NCBI GenBank assembly: GCA_050575255.1
Contig: JBNZDD010013567.1
Span: 342,842 to 406,841, forward strand
Reading direction: 5' to 3'
DNA from: Harriotta raleighana
Lineage: Eukaryota
DNA length: 64,000 nt
Numbering within the stretch: position 1 is the first letter of the stretch; every line of letters begins with the position of its first letter. Shown here one piece after another: positions 525 through 60,924 of this stretch. A program made the position numbers and the translations under genes. The notes under the pieces were generated by a model that worked only from the letters and a program-made list of their open reading frames with translations, did not search any database and had not been told where the DNA came from.

Positions 525-865
525 ACAGTAGTCATAAAATTGTATATTGCAAATGTAGCTACTGTAGTAAATTCAAGAAATCAAACTATTTATTTTTATA
601 TGATGTAAAATCCTTTCCCACCTAGAATTTGTCTCAGTCACCTCAATCACAAACTGGTGGCAATAGCTAAATCTAGATGATATTCTGAATTCATGTTTAC
701 AGGTGCACAATAGTAGCTTACGGTGACTATTTATTTGGGGTTTTACATGCTTTACCATAACCCTTTAGAACCCTTTGAGATGTCTTTCGATGTGAAAGAT
801 TATATGTCAAATTCCAGGTTTATTATTGTTAGTTGTGGAGCAAATTGGACCTGTTCTGCTATTCT

Positions 866-920
866 GAGATGCCGTCCGGCGTGGAGGGCGCTATATAAAT
901 CCAAATTGTTGTTGTTGTTA
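866..920 (+). mobile_element. L2-type LINE 3' tail
   Basis: gtggagggcgctatataaat followed by a (ttg)n tail; similar tails at 20060, 51360, 54410 and 61940. Confidence 0.65.
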
Positions 921-1477
921 TTCCATGTTATTCTCCCTATGTAATGTACCTTTTCAGAGCTCATTTTGGAGACAGTAAGTAATATATATTTTAGACATCC
1001 CATTTAATAAATCTGTCATCTTTGTACATGTCAAAACTGGATTACTTTCAGGATTGAGGTTTGGAACCACTACAATTTCTTCAATAAGAAATTATTAGTA
1101 AATTTGACAAATAGCACCTTATAAATTTGAGGAAATCAGATTGACTCTTAAGATGAATGATACGGTCATTTTTGATTCCTTGATGAGAGTCCCATTCTTG
1201 AACATCAGGCTATGAACTCATGCCCAATATGGAACCCACAAACCTTCTTATCCAGATGTGAAAGTGCTACCAACTCCCTGAAGAGAGCATCCTTTTGAGT
1301 TTCACACAACGTGTTTTTTAAAATTTCCAATATAAATACGTACAGTACATAGTTGATATATGAAAATAAATACTTTACATTCTTTAAATTGCATGCTGAT
1401 GAGATAAAATTTAATTTATTTAGTGATCAAAGAGTACTCTTCCTGTGACCTGAATTATTTACTCTGCATTTCTTAGG

Positions 1478-1960
1478 TGCAGATTCCGTTTTTATAATGG
1501 CAACATCATGAAAGTAGAAACTAACTTTTGTCTGCTGATCTTATCAGGAAAATCTTACCCTGCTTGGTTTAACTGGAAAAAATTCCAGTACAGAAGCTCC
1601 TCCTTGGGGAGAAGAAGCAATAATTACAGTTATCTTGTGCCAATTGCTTATGAAGGAATGTAAAAAATTGGTAGGCAAATAGTTAGTAATGGAGAAGTTG
1701 ATATCAGTTTCCCTTGCAGCTCAAATGGGCGAAGCAGCTGTATGAATCTGTCCCGTTAAAAAGCAGTGCATGTCTTCTATACACCTGGCATAAAACTGCT
1801 TTATGATATGGACATGATGCACTTAACAATGTTTTATCGTACACCAAATCTGTAATATTCGTACCAGGTTTTAGAAAGTTGCATCATGGATATATTTCAG
1901 GATCACCAAATACAATTGTACTGTTAAATGAGGACCATTATTGGTATAAAACATTTTCTT
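1478..1960 (+). pseudogene. Decayed paramyxovirus-like receptor-binding protein (H/HN/G) fragment, EVE
   Basis: Translation across stops and a frameshift gives YLVPIAYEGM...FPCSSNGRSSC...DALNNVLSY...YISGSPNTIVLLNEDHYWYKTFS, colinear with HN/G propeller motifs IIFLGYGGL, CPGKTQRDC and GSPSKIY...FYQASFS (by eye). Confidence 0.4.
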
Positions 1961-2605
1961 TAGGTACATTTCTACCTCATTAGAGTCTTGAGAATGTATC
2001 CTCTTTCTCAGATGGGGTTTGCTCTTTCACAAAAAATCTTTAAAACTGGTATCGTGATTCTGCTATTCCAGCGCAATGTTAAATGAAAATATTGGGTTTT
2101 CGATCCTGGGCCACGCTCCTGGTCAGAATCAACTTTGGGTTTGACAGTCTTTTAGTGAATCATCTTGGTTTTACTGCTTGGTCTTCTGTCAATTTGTGCC
2201 ATTAGAGAGTTACAGTTAGTTGTGTTTTTTTTCTTAAATTATCCTGCTCAGGAAAAGTTACTTTGCATTATTTGCCAAGTTATTTAGCACTTTTTTCCCC
2301 TTATTTTGTTAGCTTTCCCATGCCAAGTATCGCTCTTTGGTTTAAGTGCAGACTGGAGGCCTTCTCCCAGATTTCGGACCATATTACTCTGAACAAGCAA
2401 CAGGAAAGGTAGAGGAATGATCCATGACAGTTGCCTCCCTCCCTTCCCAATGACTGCTTCGTTTTCTGCAGATGGCGTGACTGTAAAGAAACGACTTTGG
2501 GGAATAGTAGCTGAGAAATAAAATTCAGTTACTCTTTATTACATATTATTGCAGACCAGATGTACCTTTTGTCACAGAGTAGGTCCTTCCGCCATATGGA
2601 GGCAG

Positions 2606-3800
2606 ATGGCTGTTAATCTGAGGTTTGAGACAATAGCTGTTGGAAGGTGATACCTGGAGTCTGAAGCTGAAGTTTTGCCTGATCTGTGAGCAGAAGAACA
2701 GAAGCAAAGTTCTCCGCATTTTGTACTAAATTGTGCAGCTCATCAAGAAAACTGCGGATGTCATGCTATGTACCAAGTGAGGGCTCAAGCTTACTGCATG
2801 TCAAATGATCAACTAGTGACTGTCCTCCTTGGGGCTGATCTGACTCCAAGTTGACATGCTTGGCAATGAAATATCGGACTCGAGTTGACCCTTTGTGGTG
2901 GTCTCGATAACTATGTCCCAGACCAGGTGCCCTCGCTTGATGGCAAGGCTTGGAGTGTCAGATTAATCACAAGAAGCAGGGATTCTTGCCACTCCAGTTA
3001 ACTCTGAAAGCATCAATTTTATTTCAAAACGTTTGTGATTCACAAATTACCGTACTGCGAACACTCTTAGACAAGTTAAGTTTCAAGAAAAGCTGAGAGA
3101 GTTTGTGAAGATGTACATCGGTGATAACTACTTCAAATTTTCTTCGGCAGCTGGGATGCATTATGACACTATACCAAAATTACATTTCAGTTGGCATGAC
3201 AATAGAACACATGGCCAAAATAAATGTCTTGGAAGATTTTCATGGAAGATTACCAAACGTTTGCAGGGAAGTTAGAGCCAGTTTTATTGAAGCAGAAGAA
3301 TCGCATGATGATTCTAAATTCATTTAGTTAAAACATATGCACCTTCAGGGCAGTCTGCTTGCAAAAATACTTAAAAATTTGACTCCCAACCAAAAGTTTG
3401 TGAGCTTAAGTCTTGGGGCTGCTTGTAACTTCAACCTACTCTACATGCCAAGGTTATACAACTGTCAGCAATTATACATTATAGGAAAAACACACAGTTC
3501 GACAGATTACCCAGTTCATTGAAAATTTATAGTTTTTTTCAATGAGGTACGGAAAATTAGCTCGTCAAACAAAGTAAGTGAGGTATGCAGATCTGCCATT
3601 CCCTTATTTTGATGAGTTTCAACTTTTGAAATGACAATATCAACAAAGATGTTATGTTCCAAATTATCTAAGAATCTAATAATTTGCTCGATGAACAAGT
3701 TAGACCTTGGGCTTCTGGTTCCCAGATTTGACAGCTTTTTGGACTTCTTATTTGCCAAATATTGAGAGGTGTGGATGAAGATGATACAGAACAGATAATT
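2606..3800 (+). pseudogene. Decayed Mononegavirales nucleoprotein (N), EVE
   Basis: About 1.2 kb of protein-like frames; IMTLYQNYISVGMT resembles paramyxoviral DIDxYIxxxGL/MT, and QGSLL...FVSLSLGAA...NCQQLYIIGK resembles pneumoviral KASLL...FSSVVLGNAA...NQDLYDAAK (ORFs 3121 and 3337 of the track). Confidence 0.6.
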
Positions 3801-5485
3801 TGACCTAAATCTTCAATGTGGAACAAATAAAAATTATAAAATCTCGAGAGGTTTCATTTCTCCCTCCGTCCCACCCAGAATGATAGATATGGCTTAATCT
3901 TTATCTTGAGGCTTTATCAGAGAGGCGAGTGGAGAGGAATGGGTGGTTGACAATTGCTTGGTGTCTCTTTTTCACTCATTTGCCCTTATCATTCTTCTGA
4001 AATGAATGCTTTATTCTATCCCAAACAACCCATTGTGATAAACCATTTTAGTTTCCATCCACACAAAAAAAATTACATAATTCCATGAAGAAATTAATCT
4101 TCATGTCTGTTCAACATTTTTTTTATATACTGCGCATGAATGTTTGAGGCAGGATGATCAATCCTCCCACAAACTCTTTTATCTACTATTATATTTCAAT
4201 TTTAATACTCCTTGTATTTAATATAGTACTTGATTTTGCAACATCTTACAGGCTTCACAGGTAATTACTGTGAAATGTGGTGACTATATATATTTGTAGC
4301 AAACACAATTTGCACATAGCCAGGTTGCAGAAACACTTGCAATTTGAACAATTTATTTGGTGGATTGTTGCCATTGTCCTGCAAATGTTAAACGACCTAT
4401 ATTTCTACACGCAGAAAGGGCTGGCATATGTTTATGTTGTGTTACAATATTTGCTTTTGCTGAATATATAAATAAAACCTAGAAAGGATATTATTGCATA
4501 AGAAGAGATTTTCATCCTTCATTTTATTCTGTTTAACCTCCCTGTGGGGATTCCAAACCAATCTGCCATATTTTTCAATTGTCTTATCCGATTTGAATGC
4601 ATATTAGTTACAAGGTAAGACAAATAAACAAATGTTAGGAAAAAAGGATCCTATTTATTTAAAATGATCTATTTTAAAAGTATGCAGTATGTTCTGGAAT
4701 GCCTTCCAATATACCTGTAATATGAATTATATTTATTCCTCACAAACTTAACTCTTTTGGTTTCAATCAGTCTCCATATTCTCCACTGAATATTTGTTTT
4801 CATGTTTATTCTGTTCTGTCAATGAATCTTATAGAATCAAGTCAGTATTGTGCACATTGCTGACAAAACATGTAGTCAGTAATTTATGATGAGAGTTTGC
4901 CCTCTCGTTTTTATGTGGTCTGCCTCTATGTGATCTTTTTCTTCATCTTCATCAACCAATACCCAGGTCACATGAATGGTTAAAAACCCCCCACTAAGGG
5001 GTTTGTGTTCAAAATATGTGTGTTCTTGATTACATAGAAGTTACAAAGTACTGTATTGTGATTGATCAGACCTATATTTGGTGCCTAAATGCGCAACCAT
5101 GAAGTTGCATTTCTACAGTCATTGCACCTTATGGTTTGACAGATGTCACATTTTCAACACAAACTAAATTTGTTTTAACATTTTTCCAATTTCTAAAATA
5201 CCCCTTTTCTTTAATCACATCACATTTCCATCAATAAAAAGCATTTGATCCTTAAGTAGAATAGAAGTGCACAAAAACGCCAAAAATGTCTCTTCTGCAA
5301 AGACAAAAAATTTCTCATTGAAGCAACCTGCCAGAGAAGTGCTTGCTGAGTAATTCTTTTGTATTCTTTTCAAGCTGGGTTACCAAAGGCATTTTGTTGA
5401 TTAATGCTTTCGACATGACCCTCCCCCCCATGAGTTACATTTGCTCTGCTGTGAGGAAAGTATCAACTAGCTGCTAAAGAGTTCC

Positions 5486-5940: not shown

Positions 5941-6202
5941 AATAATAATATTAATAATCCTTGCATTTGATATGGCGCTTTTCAAGTCTACTATAAGTCT
6001 CAAAGTGCTGGACAGAATATACTGTAAATTGAATTGACTGTATATTTGTGGGTGGAATGCGGTAGCCAATTGCTCACAGCAGTGTCCCACAAACAATCAT
6101 GGATTAAAATGACCATTAATTTTTTTGAGGAATTATTATTGAATTGAACACAGGTCTCTTGCTTGAAAGGCAAGTGCTCTAACCACTGAACTACAGAACT
6201 CT
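5941..6202 (-). mobile_element. tRNA-derived SINE
   Basis: Reverse complement has the head gagttctgtagttcagtggttagagcacttgcc...gttcaattc (A/B boxes), the family body and an (att)n tail. Confidence 0.9.
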
Positions 6203-6457
6203 CAAATGAGAGACCTGGGTTTGATTCCCGGCAGGGCAAAACCTTGGTCAAAATTCCTTACTCCAAATTTCTAATGATAATCAATTGAGAAAAAAAACAA
6301 TAATAAATTGGTCTGTTTATGGGACACTGCTGGCTGCAATTGGCTGCCATGTTTTGCCCAGAGTCAATTCATTTTAAGGTATATTCTGTAAAGCACTTTG
6401 AGACGTCTAGAAGCCATGAAAAGCGCTATATTAAATGCAAGGACTAATATTATTATA
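6203..6457 (+). mobile_element. tRNA-derived SINE, 5'-truncated, head-to-head with the previous copy
   Basis: gagagacctgggtttgattcccggcagggcaaaaccttgg...aagcgctatattaaatgcaagg. Confidence 0.9.
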
Positions 6458-9548: not shown

Positions 9549-10810
9549 ATGCCGGGCAATTTATTACCAAGGCAGGAGAGAGAGTATCCAAATTGTGTGG
9601 AATGGCCAGTTTCAGAGTAAATTCTGATTTCTAGAATATTAGTACGTGAAGAGGTTATAGAAGAGGAGTTATTGACAAACTTGTACACTGTTGTCAATGA
9701 TGATTTGACGACAGAGTCAACAGTGGATATGGTATTTCACTACTAGATACATTGAAGGTAACTGCGGCAGTGAACTTTTTTTTTGCTACTGGCAGTTTCT
9801 AGGCATCATCTGGAGACATCGCTGGCAAGAGCCAAGCTTCTGTCAGGAGGTGCAGTTGGAAACTACCAGAAGCCCTGCTCGGGAGTACTAACCAAAGTAT
9901 TTATACAAGCTGCGATGCCCAGAAGCAACATGCTTTTTAAAAAAAGATTGGATAGATTCCTCCTGTCCAAAGAATCATTGACATTTTGGATGGAGTCATC
10001 CGACCTCCAGCCAATAATCCCCTGCTATTATTAATAGGAAAGGGTTGCACTCCAACAGCATGCAGGTGGTATGGCCTTTGGTGCAAGTAATTCATATCAG
10101 TATAAAATAGCTTACCTGGACATGTGTTGCAATTATCTATGAGCTTCTTATTACTTGATTCGTTCCACGGATCCAACATAATCGATATATGTTTATTGTG
10201 GTGTTGGGGATCAAGAGTTATCTCCACGACTAAAGGTGCCTCTCATGAATCCTCGACCTCTTCGGGGAATGTAGGGACTTGTCAGATCCAACAATTATAT
10301 TGGAAGAACTTTGGCATATTAACGCAAGTGTTTTCACAGTTGAGGTGGAACACAACAATACTCTCTGTAAAACATTCAATAATTATACATTGGCATGAAA
10401 CATGGTATCCAATATATTAAAACCGGTGGCTATGCCTGCAATCCTGATGGTACCATAAGACTCCTTGTCCTACCAAGTGGTAAGTTGATGTCCTATCGTG
10501 TTTTCTACCAGATTCCGTGGTGCTGCTATTTTTAAATATTCCGCCCATCTTGTCCTCTTGCTACCCCTGATTTTGTGTGGGGAAATAGCAGTATTCATGC
10601 TGTTGGCTGCGTTTATGTAAGTCATTGCTTTTCAACAATTGCGTCTGCCTCCTGATGGAGCTTTTCAAGAGCAAATGTTTCCCGAGAAGAAGGGAAATGT
10701 ACTGCTAACAGAGTCAAATGCATCACTGAATATGCTCCATTAAAGTTAACTTCAAAGTCAATACACCTATTGCTCGCACCTCTTGTTCAAGGGCTTGCAT
10801 AGAAGTCATA
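9549..10810 (+). pseudogene. Paramyxovirus-like receptor-binding protein head (six-bladed propeller), EVE
   Basis: Colinear motifs MPGNLLP...CVEWP, WIWYFTTRYIEGNC...ATGSF, IYTSCDA (at the NRKSCS position), GMAFGASNSY, DGTIRLLVLPSGKLMSY, NRVKCITEY; several N-glycan sequons (NQS, NAS, NNT, NYT). Confidence 0.55.
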
Positions 10811-11120: not shown

Positions 11121-11900
11121 ATGAAACAGATAGTTGCCCTGATTGATGTAGGTGATATCATCCCAGGAGCATCCTCTATGTTTTAGGGAATCTACACCAC
11201 ACACCCAACAACTGTATTGAGCCAGCATCAAATAATGAAGCTTTAAGTTCATTGTACACAGACAAAGCTAAAATTGATGAACCAATTGGATTGCTAATAT
11301 TCCTGTTTTGTGATATAAAAACATAAACGTACATATTCAGGTAGCAATAAATTGGAGCCATTTGATTCATGCAGAAATTATTGATCATCAAGATTTCAAA
11401 GCAAATTTCAGGTTTGTGATTTGGTTCAAAATGTTCTAATGATTTGCAGTGCATGTAGAACTTTAACCTTTGGCAGCAACTGAAATTGAAGTTCTCACCA
11501 GTGGCAATGTGAATTATCTATCATCTCATTGGAGTGTGGCAGTGCGGTGGCAGTTTACAAGGTTTAAGCTGCTGTGTGATTGCATTGCTGCTTAACAGTG
11601 TAGGATTTCAGCTGGGGAAACAAAATATTCTGCACACCAGGGATGAACTGGATAACCCAGATGGTAAAATGAATATGTTTCTTTTCTTCGTCTAGTATTC
11701 TGATTTTGTGTATTTTTATTACTTACTGGAACTTTTATTTCATGTGTAGATTTTGAAGAACTCTGCGAAGCATCTGTTTCTTGAGAAACAAGAAATCCCA
11801 AACAGATTTACTAAGATTGCGAATGAGTTGGGTAAACAATGCCCTGATGAACGTATGAGTGTACTTACGAAAGGCACATAAGCCAACAAAAGGTGAGTGA
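11121..11900 (+). pseudogene. Paramyxovirus-like matrix (M) remnant, EVE
   Basis: MKQIVALIDVGDIIPG...LYVLGNL, FKANFRFVI (cf. QRFRVVY), and NRFTKIANELGKQ (cf. GKMSKTLHAQLGFK), in M order. Confidence 0.4.
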
Positions 11901-14480: not shown

Positions 14481-14936
14481 CTTGAATAAAATATTGTTGA
14501 GTGTTTGAGGTATATTAACTAAGTGGATTGTTTAAATTAAATTTTAATAATTTTCAGAACCATGATCTATTTGGATAATGGCTCCATTATGAAATTTTAA
14601 CTGGTGTGGTGATTCATGGATCATTGGGTCATTTGATTTTCTTGCAACTATTGGAGTCATTATATTCTGTACTTGAATGCCATTTAACTCATAATCTGAA
14701 AGCTTCAGATCTTCCGTTTCATGGGTACAGTATAATGATTATTTTAGTATTAATTTATCCAATTTGCACAATCCAAAGAAAAATGTGTAATTTTATTTAC
14801 TCAGAAAAATTTGTAAGAAATAATTTGGGTGGGGGAGCTGGAGTAAAGAATTTAGCATTAGACCAAATTTAACATGTATTGTCTGCAATGATGCAAACGT
14901 GTGTTGTACTTGAATGGATCTACAGCTCATTGACTC

Positions 14937-17427: not shown

Positions 17428-18197
17428 TATCTTGTGAATTGGGCACCTACTATCATTTACAAAATTAGTGTCAGCATNGGTGTGTATAGACGTTCAGTAT
17501 TCTTGCACGGGATCGTTTAATGCCGTTTCTCTTAAAGTTGAAATTTTCGCGAACCCGACTGCGACGTTATCTTGTGAATTGGGCACCTACTATCATTTAC
17601 AAAATTAGTGTCAGCATTTGCTTGATTGCTACCGTTAGATAGCATAGATCATTTAATTTAAGTACATCCAGCATGAGAGTAATCCAGGATTCCACAAAAA
17701 TGTTTTGGGACCAATTGAATAACTGATTCTGACAAATCATCGGTCCAACAATAATGAAAAATGTATTGTGCGGAACAGTGGCATGCAGTCGTGTGAATCA
17801 GTAACTTGTGCTTGAAGACTCTAATGCACAGGTTCAGATTCACAAAGAAAAATCGGTATCAAACATTTCAAGACTGTTTAACTCAAAATACATGAGATTG
17901 AATATCTTTTTGGCAAGGACGAGAGCTCTGCTCTTGCATCAGGATGGCTAATAATACCAGATACGTGTGGAATTAGCACTTTAGTTGTGTTTCTCTATGT
18001 AGATTGAAGTAGAATAACTGTATGATAGAAATATTTTGATATACTATACCATCCAGCTTCTTTTGGTATTTGAACTTTGAAGGTCTTTTCTTTCCTCAAT
18101 ATCTTGCATTAAATCCTATAACAGTCCTTTTTTTTGTCCATCTTATCATAATTGGACCAATTTGTCCTTAATTGTGATTATGAAATTTATATACTGT

Positions 18198-18543
18198 AAT
18201 AATAATCCTTGCATTTGATATAACTCTTTTCATGACTTCTAGACATCTCAAAGTGCTTTGCAGAATGTAATGTAAAGTGAATTCAATGTATATTTGTGGG
18301 CAAAATGTGGCAGCCAATTGCACACAGCAATGTCCCACAAGCAGTCATGGATTGAATTGACCAATTTAAAAAAAATTTTTTTAGGGATTATTATTGCATG
18401 TGTTAAGGAAACTTGCCCAAGGTTTCGCCCTGACCTCCTGGGAATTGAACCCAGGTGNCAAGGTTTCGCCCTGATCTCCTGGGAATTGAACCCAGGTGTC
18501 TCGCTTGCAAGGCAAGTGCTCTAACCACTGAGGTGCAGGACTT
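18198..18543 (-). mobile_element. Full-length tRNA-derived SINE
   Basis: Head, body and tail present; contains an N-joined duplication at 18458. Confidence 0.9.
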
Positions 18544-18639
18544 CACTGTATATTAAACTGGCATTAGAAGTAGTATCCAGTGAAACCTACATCTCAGCTT
18601 TTTAAAACAATACATTTATTTGGTCTTTTTAAGACAGTT

Positions 18640-44850: not shown

Positions 44851-44881
<31 letters not shown>

Positions 44882-44919
44882 NGAACACTATTGAGCTATC
44901 CATTGCTCATCACTCTCCG

Positions 44920-44956
<37 letters not shown>

Positions 44957-46988: not shown

Positions 46989-47531
46989 TTAATGTCACTG
47001 TAAATATCCCACCTTTCTGCTGAAGGTTAAATCTGATTTTTTTTCAATGACACTGTTTGGGATAGCAAAAAGAAATCATGCCTAGTGGTGTTAGAAAGCA
47101 GAATAATCAGATTATTCTTTGTATAAAATTTAGTACTTGCTACATTTAGCAATGATTATGTGAATTCAGTTTTACACCTTCCTTGGGTGTCTTTCACTGA
47201 GGGGAAAGTGTGTTGGGGTCACTCATAACTAAAACAATAGTCATAATTTCAGCAGTAAGGTTGAGAGCTGTTACTGGAAAATAAAGGAAAAAAGAATGTA
47301 ATTCAGCGAACTGACTGGGATATGAATCATAGTATTTCTGCAATCAGGCTTGAGACTTTGTCCCAATTGTTGACTCATTGGATAGAGTCTAGCCATTTAA
47401 ATTTGTGCAAATTTAGAGGTGAAATATGCTACTACAGTAACTCACATTCCATAGCGTTGATTTTATTGTCAAAAGAAAAATAATCTCTATTGGTGGGTAT
47501 TCGTTGGTATTCATTTGCAAGCTCATAATTA

Positions 47532-48674
47532 GTTTTTAAGGGGAGTGATAACAGTTACATCAATATTTGGGTTGATGGCAGTGAGAATGCTGTAGTCTTG
47601 TTTTCAATCCTCAATATTCAATTTATACATAGGATTGCATAGAACATTACAACATTGAAACATGCCATTTGACATAACAAGGCCATGCTGATGTTTATAT
47701 TCCACCCCACCCGCCTCTCACACCTCCATCCTTCTATGCCCATCTCTTCTACCTCTCTATTTATTCCCTTCTCTCTCAGTGGAATCCTGTACTCAGTGGT
47801 TAGAGCACTCACCTTGCAACTGAGAGACTTTGGTTTGATTGCTGGCAAGGCAAAACCTTGGACAAGTTTCCTTACTCCACATGCCTAATAATAATCCTTC
47901 AAAGAAAAATAATGAATTGGTTATTTCAATCCATGACTATTGGTGGATTGCTGTGTACAATTTGCTGCTGCATTTCTCCCACAAATATATATTCAATTCA
48001 CTTCACAATTGAAGTGAATTGCATTCACTTCTAGACTTTGAGACGTTTAGAAAACGTGAAAAGCACTATATCAAATGTAAAGATTATTATTATTATACAT
48101 TCAAGTTCTTAGTGTTTAGGAAAATGGCTGTTTTAGGTAGGAATTCTTTCAACAAGAGGTTAACTCTCTGCATTCCTTTAAAAACCTCAAATGTTACTAA
48201 AATCCACACAATGTTCTGGAAGAAATGTCCTTGGAAAATCATAATTTCCAGACGTCTCTATTTAAGAGTGACTAAGAGAGGTTTAGGACCAACCAAAATA
48301 TGCAGCTTTCTCAGTTAGTTGTTTCTGAAGACTTCTGACAATGAATTTTGTTGTTGATCTTGCAACAGGAGTCTTTTTCCACCCAGCTTTCCTCCTTTGA
48401 AGTTTTCTTCCTTTGCTGAACTTGATCAGAACAATACCGAAGGTAAAGTATTTAACTGAACTATGGTTTTCAACAAAATATGATAGATTCTAGTTACAAC
48501 ACTCCCTTTCACAATTTGTTTTTAAGGGGAGTGATAACAGTTATATCAATATTTGGGTTGATGGCAGTGAGAATGCTGTAGTCTTGTTTTCAATCCTCAA
48601 TATTCAATTTATACATAAGATTGCATAGAACATTACAACATTGAAACATGCAATTTAACATAACAAGGCCATGC
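47532..48674 (+). repeat. 157-bp direct repeat (47532-47688 and 48518-48674)
   Basis: gtttttaagggg...acaaggccatgc occurs twice with a few substitutions and no N between the copies. Confidence 0.9.
47781..48096 (+). mobile_element. Full-length tRNA-derived SINE
   Basis: ggaatcctgtactcagtggttagagcactcacc...tatcaaatgtaaagattattattattat. Confidence 0.9.
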
Positions 48675-53700: not shown

Positions 53701-54547
53701 AGCTAACATTTTCTGCCCTTTTATCAAATGATTAACTCTCTTGGCAATCCAAGTGATTTGTTTAAAATTGAGGTTAAGCCGTGCCATTTGTAAGCACAGT
53801 TGTAAAGATTAGTTATAGGGATAATCCAATTGCAGCTTCAATGTCAGTTTGAAACATCCAGCATTTTCAGTCCAATCCCAGATAAAGACCCAAATTCCTA
53901 CTAATAATGCAAAAATCAAAGGCAACAACGTTAAACCTAATCACTAGTAAGTTCAACCAGGGCGTAATGTGACTTATAACTAGTAGCACTACATAGACAG
54001 TAATTCTGCCAGTTAATGTAAAAAGAGAAGTTAGAGCCTTAATCCTAATGGGATATAAGTAAAGTGTCTTTGTGGTTTTATTGGAAACATAGCACCCACT
54101 GATGCTAAGATAATAACAGTCCCAATTTCTGTGGTTGGTTACTGTTGCAGTGACTCAGTCCTGCCTCTTAAAACCACACTGAATATTTATTCAGTTAAAA
54201 TGTTCTGGGGGGTCACAATATGCTTTGGGTAGACATCCTATTCCTTGAATCTTTAACTGATAGATTTGCTGACTTTCTCACAGTGCTGATGTCTGTGTAT
54301 TATTTATTGGTAAATTTATATGTCTGATTACAATAGTTCATACAACTGTCGTTTTTAGTAAAAGCTGACCAGATCATTTTAATCGCTTAGAATACTTGTC
54401 AGATTCAAAGCACTCCGAGTGTGAAGGGCACTATGTAAATGCAAGTTATTGTTGTTATTGTGTTTTAGGACAGAGATAAGTTCTTCACTGACCTGGCTCA
54501 GGCAAATAATTTGAAAATAATTTGGTGGTTCTTTCAGATTAGCAGTA

Positions 54548-55638
54548 CAGTTAACCCTCGTCGAAGGCGACTTTATCGATTGCGAATTCAAGAATATGCG
54601 ACGAAACAAAAGCATCACTTTTTTGTGCAGCGTGTGTAAAACTTGTGTGTACGTGCTGGCTGACCCCTGCGCACATGCGCACAGGTGAAGACGCCGATAG
54701 CTCCCGACTAAATCCGATGATTCCTTGGCTGGCTGGTCCCGCTCGGATGCACATTTTTAACGAGGCCGGCAGATCCTGACTAAAGCCAATGATTCCTTGG
54801 CTGGCTGGCCCTGCGCGCAATGCATTCCTGGATAAATATAATAATGTTTCGGCCTCGGAGAATCTTATTGGATTGCATGGTAGACAGAAGAGACAGAGAG
54901 ACAGGATCGTACAGTAATGTAGCCTAATCTACCCTATTGTTTTATTGCTTTTTTTAATTGCTTTACTGCTTTGTTATCACTTTATTATAGCAATAAAGCA
55001 ATAACAAAGCCTCTGTAACCTTTCTGCATCTCCCGTCCCAACCACCTGCGCCTTTCTGTCCCCCCGCGCGTCCCCGAGCAGTTCTCTGCCCCCATGTCCG
55101 CGAGTCCCCCGCTCTCCCCGAGTCCCCCCCACACCCGATCTACTCTCTGCCCCCCACCTCTCCGAGTCCCCCCCGCCTCTGATCGACTCGCTGCCCCCCA
55201 ACTCCCCGAGTCCCCCCCCCCACCTCCGATTGACTCTCTGCTCCCCACCTCCAAGAGTCCCCCCTGCCTCCGAATGCCTCTCTGTACCCTTCCTCCCCCA
55301 CCCGCCCGCTGCTCTCCCCGATTTCTCTCTGCCTTCCTCCCGGGCTGCCCTGATTTGTCCACTTCCTGGGTGGCAGGAGAGACAAGAGCAGGAAGAGTGG
55401 AGGGTGGGGAGCAACAAGAGCGGGGAGAGGTGGGCAAAGCGAGGAGCGGGCCAGCCAGCTGTAGCTTGCCTCAGTAGATACCTTGCATCGGATGTGCTTG
55501 GAGGCTTGAGGTGGGTAGCCTACGACTGGATTTCCCTAACCCCCCTTTTCCCATTACTTCTTAAGCTTCTCCAACGCAATTTTGTTGAGTCCGCAATTTT
55601 CCAGGAACATAACCCCTACGATCGACAAGGGTTAATTG
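54548..55638. mobile_element. Tigger/pogo-like non-autonomous DNA transposon with CpG- and C-rich interior
   Basis: TA|cagttaaccctcgtcga ... tcgacaagggttaattg (17-bp TIR, 2 mismatches); internal repeat atgattccttggctggctgg twice; no transposase ORF. Confidence 0.8.
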
Positions 55639-56782
55639 CTGTCAAGTGAGCAAGTTCGTATAATTGTGGACAGTTTTAGACAACTAACTTTCACAAATAT
55701 GTTGAAGAGCATAGAGAACATGAGCCAGGAACTTGGCTGCAGTTTTGAAGAGAGACTTACATGATTCATCTCTTCCAAATGAGAAGAGATTATATGGATA
55801 TAAGAAGGCTGTTTGACATAGACTGCTGAACTAGACTGTTTGACCTGGAGTAGAATTAGCAAAAGAATTCAATGCTGTGTCTCATATAAAAAGTAAATGA
55901 AGTATCTGCTCTTGGAATGGTGTTGGAAGATGTAGCAATAAATGAAATTTGGATACTCTAGCATGGTGATGGGTTTCCGCATGTGTCAGACACCAGGCTG
56001 ACCAAAAAAAAATATTCCACAGCAAGCAAATGTTAGGGGGTTATTATGTTTAAGGGGTATTGTCTGTGAGGGTTTGGAGACTTAATATTGAATGGATGAG
56101 TATTTTAATGTATTGATTAGTTACCTTGTGAGGATCTTGAGAATTGGTAGTGCAGTATTTGCATTGAAGTTCCCTGCTTGTATTACTTGGCTTTATTGCT
56201 GTTGCTGTTAGTTTTCTTTCATCTTTGCTACTGCTGTGAATACTGATCAGATTGAAGAAAACAAATTATGGAGTTTTATGGAGTCAGCAAGTGAGTTTTA
56301 ATCTGGTTATGATGCTGTTGACTTCAAGATGCCTGAGTAACTTTGTGGTAAGATATATTTGTGAATTGGGCTGGGAAGGAATGTTTGTGGATTGGGAAAA
56401 GAAGGAATACTTGTGGATTGTAACGGGATGAACTTTTTATTATTTTTTTAGAAGTACAGGCACACATTGTTTCCAGATAAATAAAAATCTGCTTATTATT
56501 TTTGGCTTGGTTAAGCAGTGTGGTGCTTGGCTTTAATTTTAAATGTTCCATGTGTCTCCGTTCCAAGATTAATGGCTATGAGATATAAACCCTTCCTCAC
56601 TTTAGAAACTTAATAACTACAGTAGTATGTAATCATATTGCAAAATACTCTTTGCTGCATTTATACAGATGCAGTATTTTATGCATTTTGTACTATCGTG
56701 GTATTTTAATTGAACCTGTTTCTAATTGCTTTATTCCTCCTCTTGCTGTGGTTTATGTTGTGAGTGATATTACAATTAAAAG

Positions 56783-60285: not shown

Positions 60286-60634
60286 GTCCCAACATGAAAG
60301 GAGCTAAATAAATACTATTTGTTGTATTTGTTTCCCAGCAAATGTGTGTGTTTTGCTCAACTTCACATATTTTGGAAGACAGTTCTATTCAGAGAAAACA
60401 ACAGAAATGATCCAGCTGGACGTGGCTTTCAGACCTGGCAGAATATCCACTACATTTACATACAGATGCATTTCCTCCCCAACCTCTGCTATCTGCTTTG
60501 ATGTGCTGAGTGTGCCCAAATGATTTGATCGTATGATCTTGGCAATCTGACTGCCTACACTTAGCTCAGTGAAATATTGATGATTCATATTCAAAAGAAG
60601 GATTGGAACAGGAATGAATGCTTTATTTATTCCT

Positions 60635-60924
60635 GGAGTCCCATAGCTCAGCGGGTAGAGCGTTTGTCTCTCAAGTGAGTGACCTGAGTTCAATTCCCAG
60701 ACCAGGGCAAAACCATGGGCAAATTTCCTTACTCCTCATGCCTGAAAATAATCCTTCAAGAAAAAAAAGCCGACTGTTTGTGGTGCCCTGCTGTGCACAA
60801 TTAGCTGCTGTGTTTCACCCAGAAATATACAGTTAATTCACTTTACAGTATAATCTGTGAAGCACTTTGAGACTTCCAAAAAACGTGAAAAGCTCTGTAT
60901 CAAATGCAAGCATTATTATTATTA
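60635..60924 (+). mobile_element. Full-length tRNA-derived SINE
   Basis: ggagtcccatagctcagcgggtagagcg...gagttcaattccc (A/B boxes), body and tail. Confidence 0.9.

Follow-up and report, generated by a model that had tools for sequence, protein, structure and literature searches.

A broken reading at positions 2606–3765 of the plus strand, in a stretch of 64,000 nucleotides from Harriotta raleighana (the window), may be the fossil of a rhabdovirus-type nucleoprotein (N) gene, that is, a dead endogenous viral element. Judged from sequence comparison, we give this reading about an even chance. We favour it because several blocks are collinear with rabies virus N, two features fall at the places predicted from those blocks, a neighbouring region resembles a rhabdoviral glycoprotein (G), and no host match was found. 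Membership in Rhabdoviridae is not established, and at most the locus resembles a dead retroposed viral gene. The first-pass annotation had described it as a near full-length nucleoprotein fossil with mixed paramyxovirus- and pneumovirus-like motifs. A decayed mononegaviral N is indeed the likeliest single reading, with zero confirmation from the libraries searched, and the mixed family assignment is not supported.

Layout of the broken reading

The reading extends over ~386 codons, for which the ~400 residues originally proposed is a fair description, and passes through three plus-strand frames with nine internal stops and at least two frame changes to a terminal stop at 3763. An intact ORF is absent at 2606–3765; three frames and all nine internal stops are needed to cover the span. 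The locus is present as a single copy in the window, with no paralogues. Segment A (2606..2986, plus strand) starts from the ATG at 2606, which is confirmed in the sequence, and is interrupted by stops at 2648, 2687, 2852 and 2867; it would correspond to the N-terminal lobe of N and is the least well supported of the three. Segment B (2988..3179, plus strand), in the next frame, has one internal stop at 3036 and carries the short matches NYRT (3045) and FVKM (3102) described below. Segment C (3181..3765, plus strand), in the third frame, has internal stops at 3325, 3520, 3610 and 3613 before the end stop and would contain the putative RNA-binding core and the C-terminal lobe. The four motifs quoted in the annotation are all found in this one frame between 3181 and 3489: YISVGMT (3181–3201), QGSLL (3346–3360), FVSLSLGAA (3397–3423) and QQLYIIGK (3466–3489). 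Ahead of the ATG, frame A is open for ~60 codons with one stop (2420–2605, plus strand). The same frame has an earlier ATG at 2450, and that at 2606 is a candidate start only.

Openness and coding signal were compared with those of other slices of the window and of shuffled versions of the locus. Along the best three-frame path, stops are depleted to a degree equalled by 152–179 of 404 other slices and by 41–66 of 300 shuffles. A generic coding score based on amino acids places the plus strand of the locus in the top 18–21 of 296 slices, and the same score is reached by 58–60 of 200 shuffles. From these two kinds of control, both the openness and the coding signal are therefore within chance; the motifs, the ATG and the length that had been noted are all present, and it is an excess over chance that is not seen. 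The window is AT-rich and CpG-depleted (GC 0.37, CpG observed/expected 0.32), and the base content and CpG depletion of the locus are close to those of the remainder. Both observations favour the explanation that the locus is not a viral gene: it would be non-coding DNA of unique sequence, or what is left of a transposon or pseudogene too old to be recognised, with short motifs that look viral by chance. We regard this as a substantial possibility, though one clearly short of even. An apparent excess of TGA (nine of the ten stops to 3765) was discarded, TGA making up 40 of the 68 stops across the three plus frames of the locus.

Resemblance to viral nucleoproteins

The N proteins of the paramyxo-, pneumo- and filoviruses share one fold, which counts in favour of the locus being the N of a deep-branching fish virus resembling these families, a reading that we consider unlikely. 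In the available text of PMC2577636, the paramyxoviral N motif is F-X4-Y-X3-aromatic-S-aromatic-A-M-G at residues 322–336, and a measles peptide containing it is given in the available part of PMC8955406. YISVGMT, which had been taken for this motif, is the best site in the locus for the pattern and to that extent speaks for such a virus; however, it has only three of the eight fixed positions and lies in the wrong place (codons ~184–198), while VSLSLG, which lies in the right place (codons ~265–270, for a motif at ~256–270), has two of the eight. In a scan that let any hydrophobic residue stand at the aromatic places, 0.12–0.20 equally good sites are expected per slice of the same size, and YISVGMT is thus at chance level. 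Paramyxovirus-like elements, many of them highly degenerate, are reported in teleosts, amphibians and one cartilaginous fish in the available text of PMC11089739 and PMC11521997. Against a virus of this kind are also the zero matches in Pfam and PDB to paramyxoviral, pneumoviral or filoviral N, where matches below the HMMER filters are not visible, and the region upstream, which resembles a rhabdoviral G rather than a class I fusion protein. With the paramyxoviral motif failing and no library support for pneumoviral likeness, the mixed assignment is unsupported. The blocks quoted for it appear to align by hand at least equally well with rabies virus N.

The rabies N sequence printed in the available text of PMC12737511, with peptides also in that of PMC6310296, was used as reference, and ungapped blocks were scored by hand with BLOSUM62. 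Seven plus-strand blocks are collinear with it: NYRT at 3045 (residues 160–163, score 20), FVKM at 3102 (178–181, score 16), EVRASFIEAEES at 3268 (268, score 21), SKFI..LQG at 3313 (284, score 22), FV..LG..N at 3397 (314, score 18), FFNEVRKI at 3535 (359, score 17) and RFDSFLDFLFAKY at 3724 (434, score 25). The offsets between codon and residue number are 13, 12, 47, 48, 50, 49 and 61, respectively, and the biggest jumps in register are at or close to the frame changes. The offset is 0 at the ATG at 2606, a start that was proposed independently of the rabies comparison, and two weak blocks in segment A (scores 13 and 14) also have an offset of 0 to the rabies numbering. In the part of PMC12634848 available, residues 273–283 of VSV N have S, L and L in common with 3313–3345 at exactly the same spacing.

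Each block taken singly is under the chance maximum, estimated by hand at ~28–31, and sites scoring equal to NYRT number three in the window on both strands. When random 450-residue proteins were set against the same three frames, 57–60 of 60 equalled the hand chain under three scoring schemes, indicating that such chains of blocks are cheap; this control ignores which columns are conserved, and rabies N scored in full would reach at least the hand value. Other N families can also be fitted by eye, and the ease with which this is done indicates that fits of this type are cheap too. These results, and the selection of the motifs after they had been seen (the patterns for the C-terminal block and the G-like region were likewise shaped after the matches), favour a chance origin.

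Two features at predicted places argue against it. The first is the rhabdoviral RNA-binding motif, G(L/I)SxKSPYSS, found in the central region of N (PMC4234470). It is not in the reading frame of segment C itself, and a near-match is located at 3342..3362 (plus strand) in a neighbouring frame (SGQSAC from 3345). Three of the nine fixed residues are matched there (L, S and S, spanning a frame change), at the spot predicted by the flanking blocks. Reading the motif here entails two further frame changes. At a specified position, give or take 2 codons, a match this good has a chance probability of 0.035, and equally good sites number 280 over both strands. Scanned without regard to position, the locus shows no enrichment of the motif, and 3342 does not come out as the top site. 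The second feature is the C-terminal block, SFLDFLFAKY (3733..3765, plus strand), which corresponds to residues 437–446 of the 450 in rabies N and is directly followed by a stop, four residues earlier than the rabies N end. For this pattern, 3733 is the sole site at that score on both strands of the window, and none occurs in 2 Mb of simulated sequence. By hand estimate, the block and its stop have a chance probability of ~0.01–0.02 after allowing for the choice of pattern, and that for the RNA-binding motif and C-terminal block jointly is estimated at ~0.001–0.003 with five families allowed for. The locus is thus like rabies N in the order and rough spacing of its blocks and in the C-terminal block before the stop; it differs in being ~64 residues shorter and in a similarity that is not significant by position-blind scoring.

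For library searches, the frame and stop breaks in the query translations were entered as X. Pfam identified no family for segments A, B or C, their sub-pieces or read-throughs of a single frame change, although three of the runs gave one chance-level non-viral family each, and none of the 300 longest stop-to-stop frames of the window reached the curated cut-off. NCBIfam gave zero matches for the locus, and seven queries from the N-like and G-like regions against PDB sequences gave chance matches only (best E 0.022, unrelated). Segment C had no match at E ≤ 0.001 in a library of 1.84 billion representatives, word searches with the N-like reading gave 244 and 245 candidates with zero at E ≤ 10, and plasmid blastn gave nothing significant. 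Part of segment B in its natural frame matched unnamed clusters in the Atlas (best 0.78). The Pfam and PDB libraries include these N families. The negative searches indicate that the locus has no close relative in these sets, and in particular there was no rhabdoviral N sequence or profile match, within the limit that the HMMER filters conceal matches weaker than about E 0.1–2. That every library search is negative is in keeping with chance; on the other side, these filters would probably also miss a distant virus whose copy had decayed heavily, and neither a host gene nor a transposon match to the locus was found, in searches that had no repeat library among them.

Fold searches were made with single-sequence models of pLDDT 33.8 and 43.0, which are too poor to use. 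The second (3178–3519, pLDDT 43.0) is all helical, as expected of N, at low confidence. Foldseek with these low-confidence models gave no match at E ≤ 0.001, and the best VIA match (Z 7.1, rmsd 3.6, 92 aligned) was among generic bundles. A nucleoprotein is absent among the matches listed and, as the models are poor, this is not evidence against an N fold. Of the observations that would bear against the annotated viral nucleoprotein, then, a host gene or transposable element match was not found, and the check on the fold yielded only these two models.

The glycoprotein-like region and the proposed origin

The plus-strand region upstream of the locus (1000–2300) was compared with VSV G, using Table 1 of PMC4206542 as reference. 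CH..WIT at 1014 (block 1011..1095) and SIRNY at 1081, on the other side of a frame change, correspond to C75 and S97 of VSV G and are 22 codons apart, the same as C75 to S97. SYLVP at 1628 (residue 319), NG at 1685 and PN at 1906 are within 1454..2230, which would be the remainder of a possible glycoprotein fossil in three frames with many stops, and a hydrophobic run at about 2140–2230 follows ~80 codons after PN. CH..WIT, SIRNY and SYLVP occur once each in the six frames and are collinear on the same strand, 1.0–1.6 kb 5′ of the ATG; two sites in the window score as SYLVP. The region is thus like VSV G in the order and rough spacing of the patterns and in the hydrophobic run ~80 residues after PN. 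Counting against it, the distances are 0.82 times those of VSV from 1081 to 1628 and 1.38 times from 1628 to 1906. The presence of three ordered G-like patterns adjoining the N-like reading, with all leads pointing to one virus family, argues against chance.

Other results are less favourable. A strict GPNG-like score gives zero sites in 1–2400, so the PN match is weak, and the hydrophobic run is not special, being matched at 34 places in the window. On the generic coding score, a coding signal is absent in the G-like region. Nothing significant was found for the region in Pfam, PDB, the Atlas (no usable match in its natural frame) or by word search (55 candidates, zero at E ≤ 10). A TATG(A)7-like word with one mismatch (1359–1369, plus strand), set in AT-rich sequence midway through the region, is the sole close one in 900–4000, and five such sites are present on the plus strand of the window. 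Its position inside the supposed G, away from gene ends, counts against the reading of G and N together. DE.YG (1155) and CPIW (1227) were tried as further G motifs and dropped, their spacing from SIRNY being a misfit. Further upstream, a short open stretch with a hydrophobic start (717–870, plus strand; zero Pfam matches), interrupted by a repeat fragment at 864–922, could be the beginning of the G-like region. That rhabdovirus-type fossils of G and N are both real and are neighbours in a cartilaginous-fish germ line, with G preceding N, is a conjecture that we hold to be somewhat doubtful.

The gap between the two regions is ~300–400 bases, in which P or M would not fit. The rhabdovirus gene order is N-P-M-G-L (PMC4334499, available text), and it is not found here; in contrast to the VSV genome, the G-like region precedes the N-like one with neither P nor M between. 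A fossil derived from mRNA need not preserve the viral order, and G before N, if real, would imply either a template switch between mRNAs or a virus with another gene order. Chuviruses and their kin have the order G then N. The two regions, adjacent on the same strand with no room for P or M, could accordingly derive in one piece from the genome of a negative-strand virus not yet sampled, with its own G–N order, copied from genome-length or read-through RNA, and chuvirus elements are common among vertebrates (available text of PMC11521997 and PMC11089739). However, the motifs lead to proteins like those of VSV and rabies virus, in which the genes run N-P-M-G-L, the chuvirus row in the table of PMC11089739, as far as available, shows zero in cartilaginous fish, no clear gene-junction signal was found between the G-like and N-like regions, and the G reading is itself unproven. 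We regard such an origin as very improbable.

For the rhabdovirus-type fossil that we prefer, we infer the following route. LINEs can make chimeras through template switching between two mRNAs. In the germ line of a fish-like vertebrate host, a LINE would have reverse-transcribed the nucleoprotein mRNA of a rhabdovirus-type virus, and the copy would have inserted in non-coding DNA, where it would then have decayed through stops, frame changes and deletions; at present the locus would encode nothing. The same round of copying may also have taken in a glycoprotein mRNA from this kind of virus, whose copy would lie upstream in the same orientation; G would then precede N through a jump of the reverse transcriptase to a G mRNA once it had reached the 5′ end of its N template. 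In the available text of PMC11089739 and PMC2987831, mononegaviral elements are single mRNAs copied by host LINEs, mostly of N and L and sometimes of G.

Signals of insertion are faint. An A-rich tract shortly 3′ of the stop (3815..3840, plus strand) is a weak candidate for a decayed poly(A); its best 25-mer has 15 A, a level reached by 0.65% of the 25-mers of the window, with ~95 starts examined. No target-site duplication was seen, the longest flanking repeats being 8–9 bases, the same as for random pairs of zones. TATG(A)7 sites with three mismatches at 2512 and 3817 are background (5.4 per kb), and so are the start words AACA(G/A) at 2392 and 2399 (4.3 per kb).

Known viral fossils and the rest of the window

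Rhabdoviruses infect fish. If the N-like and G-like readings are both correct, they would represent the first element of rhabdoviral origin in a vertebrate, judged against the screens of PMC11089739 and PMC11521997, as far as their available text goes. In that of the former, the vertebrate screen lists 19 paramyxovirus-like elements, one of them in a cartilaginous fish, and none detected from Rhabdoviridae or Pneumoviridae; it is possible that the cartilaginous-fish element is this same locus. The latter describes 17 L and two N paramyxoviral elements in teleosts, and "rhabdo" is absent from its main text; PMC11398700 gives no further information on the point. Known rhabdovirus-derived elements are in arthropods (PMC2987831, available text), and a vertebrate one is absent from the titles and abstracts of the literature searched, which lies mostly outside subscription journals.

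The tick and mosquito rhabdovirus elements described in the available part of PMC2987831 likewise preserve N and G, and the insect cases have no target-site duplication or clear poly(A); they differ from the present locus, which is in a vertebrate and has dead frames and homology too faint to detect. The paramyxovirus-like elements of fish and amphibians (PMC11089739 and PMC11521997, available text) are similarly degenerate mononegaviral fossils in fish-like hosts, but these pass tBLASTn screens (1e-5 in PMC11521997), whereas our locus does not and also fails the paramyxoviral motif. With the mammalian bornavirus- and filovirus-like N elements, as given in the accessible text of PMC2987831, the locus shares the proposed route, the LINE copy of one viral mRNA; those elements typically have a poly(A) and target-site duplications, in contrast to the weak A-rich tract alone seen here.

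A true fossil of this type would be too decayed for BLAST-based screens, and such fossils would lie under the limits of current screens; it would provide a test case for frameshift-aware profile searches. With G and N both real, it would be either a LINE-made chimera of two mRNAs or evidence of viruses whose genes had been reordered. Given orthologues in related species, it would put a lower bound on how long rhabdoviruses have infected jawed vertebrates. If the resemblance is due to chance, it would show how readily the reading of motifs in three-frame translations produces virus-like chains.

Elsewhere in the window, a tRNA-headed SINE is present ~19 times, for instance at 18197–18548 and 60634–60924; its copies share a 3′ tail that we take to resemble DeuSINE-type elements. 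Copies of this host type flank the viral-like region at 324–527 and 5941–6457. A weak match to DUF659 (9940–10242, minus strand; E 0.0027, below the cut-off) is possibly a decayed hAT transposase. The longest frames of the window are accounted for by an element at 54547–55638, which has inverted repeats at its termini, encloses a GC-rich tandem array and by eye is pogo/Tigger-like; 55443–56035, tried as a viral candidate, was rejected as it has no viral match and is mostly a repeat element. Two stretches at 11751–11892 and 14557–14722 (plus strand), with splice-like signals at their edges by eye and no evident coding match, are possibly exons of a non-coding transcript. Single Ns are found between near-identical tandem copies (17478, 18458, 44882, 50098, 50214, 50468 and 53393), and long C runs are present at 44852–44956; these are likely to be assembly joins, not real duplications. 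A 166-base segment that is not part of the SINE occurs twice, ~1 kb apart, at 47523–47688 and 48509–48674.
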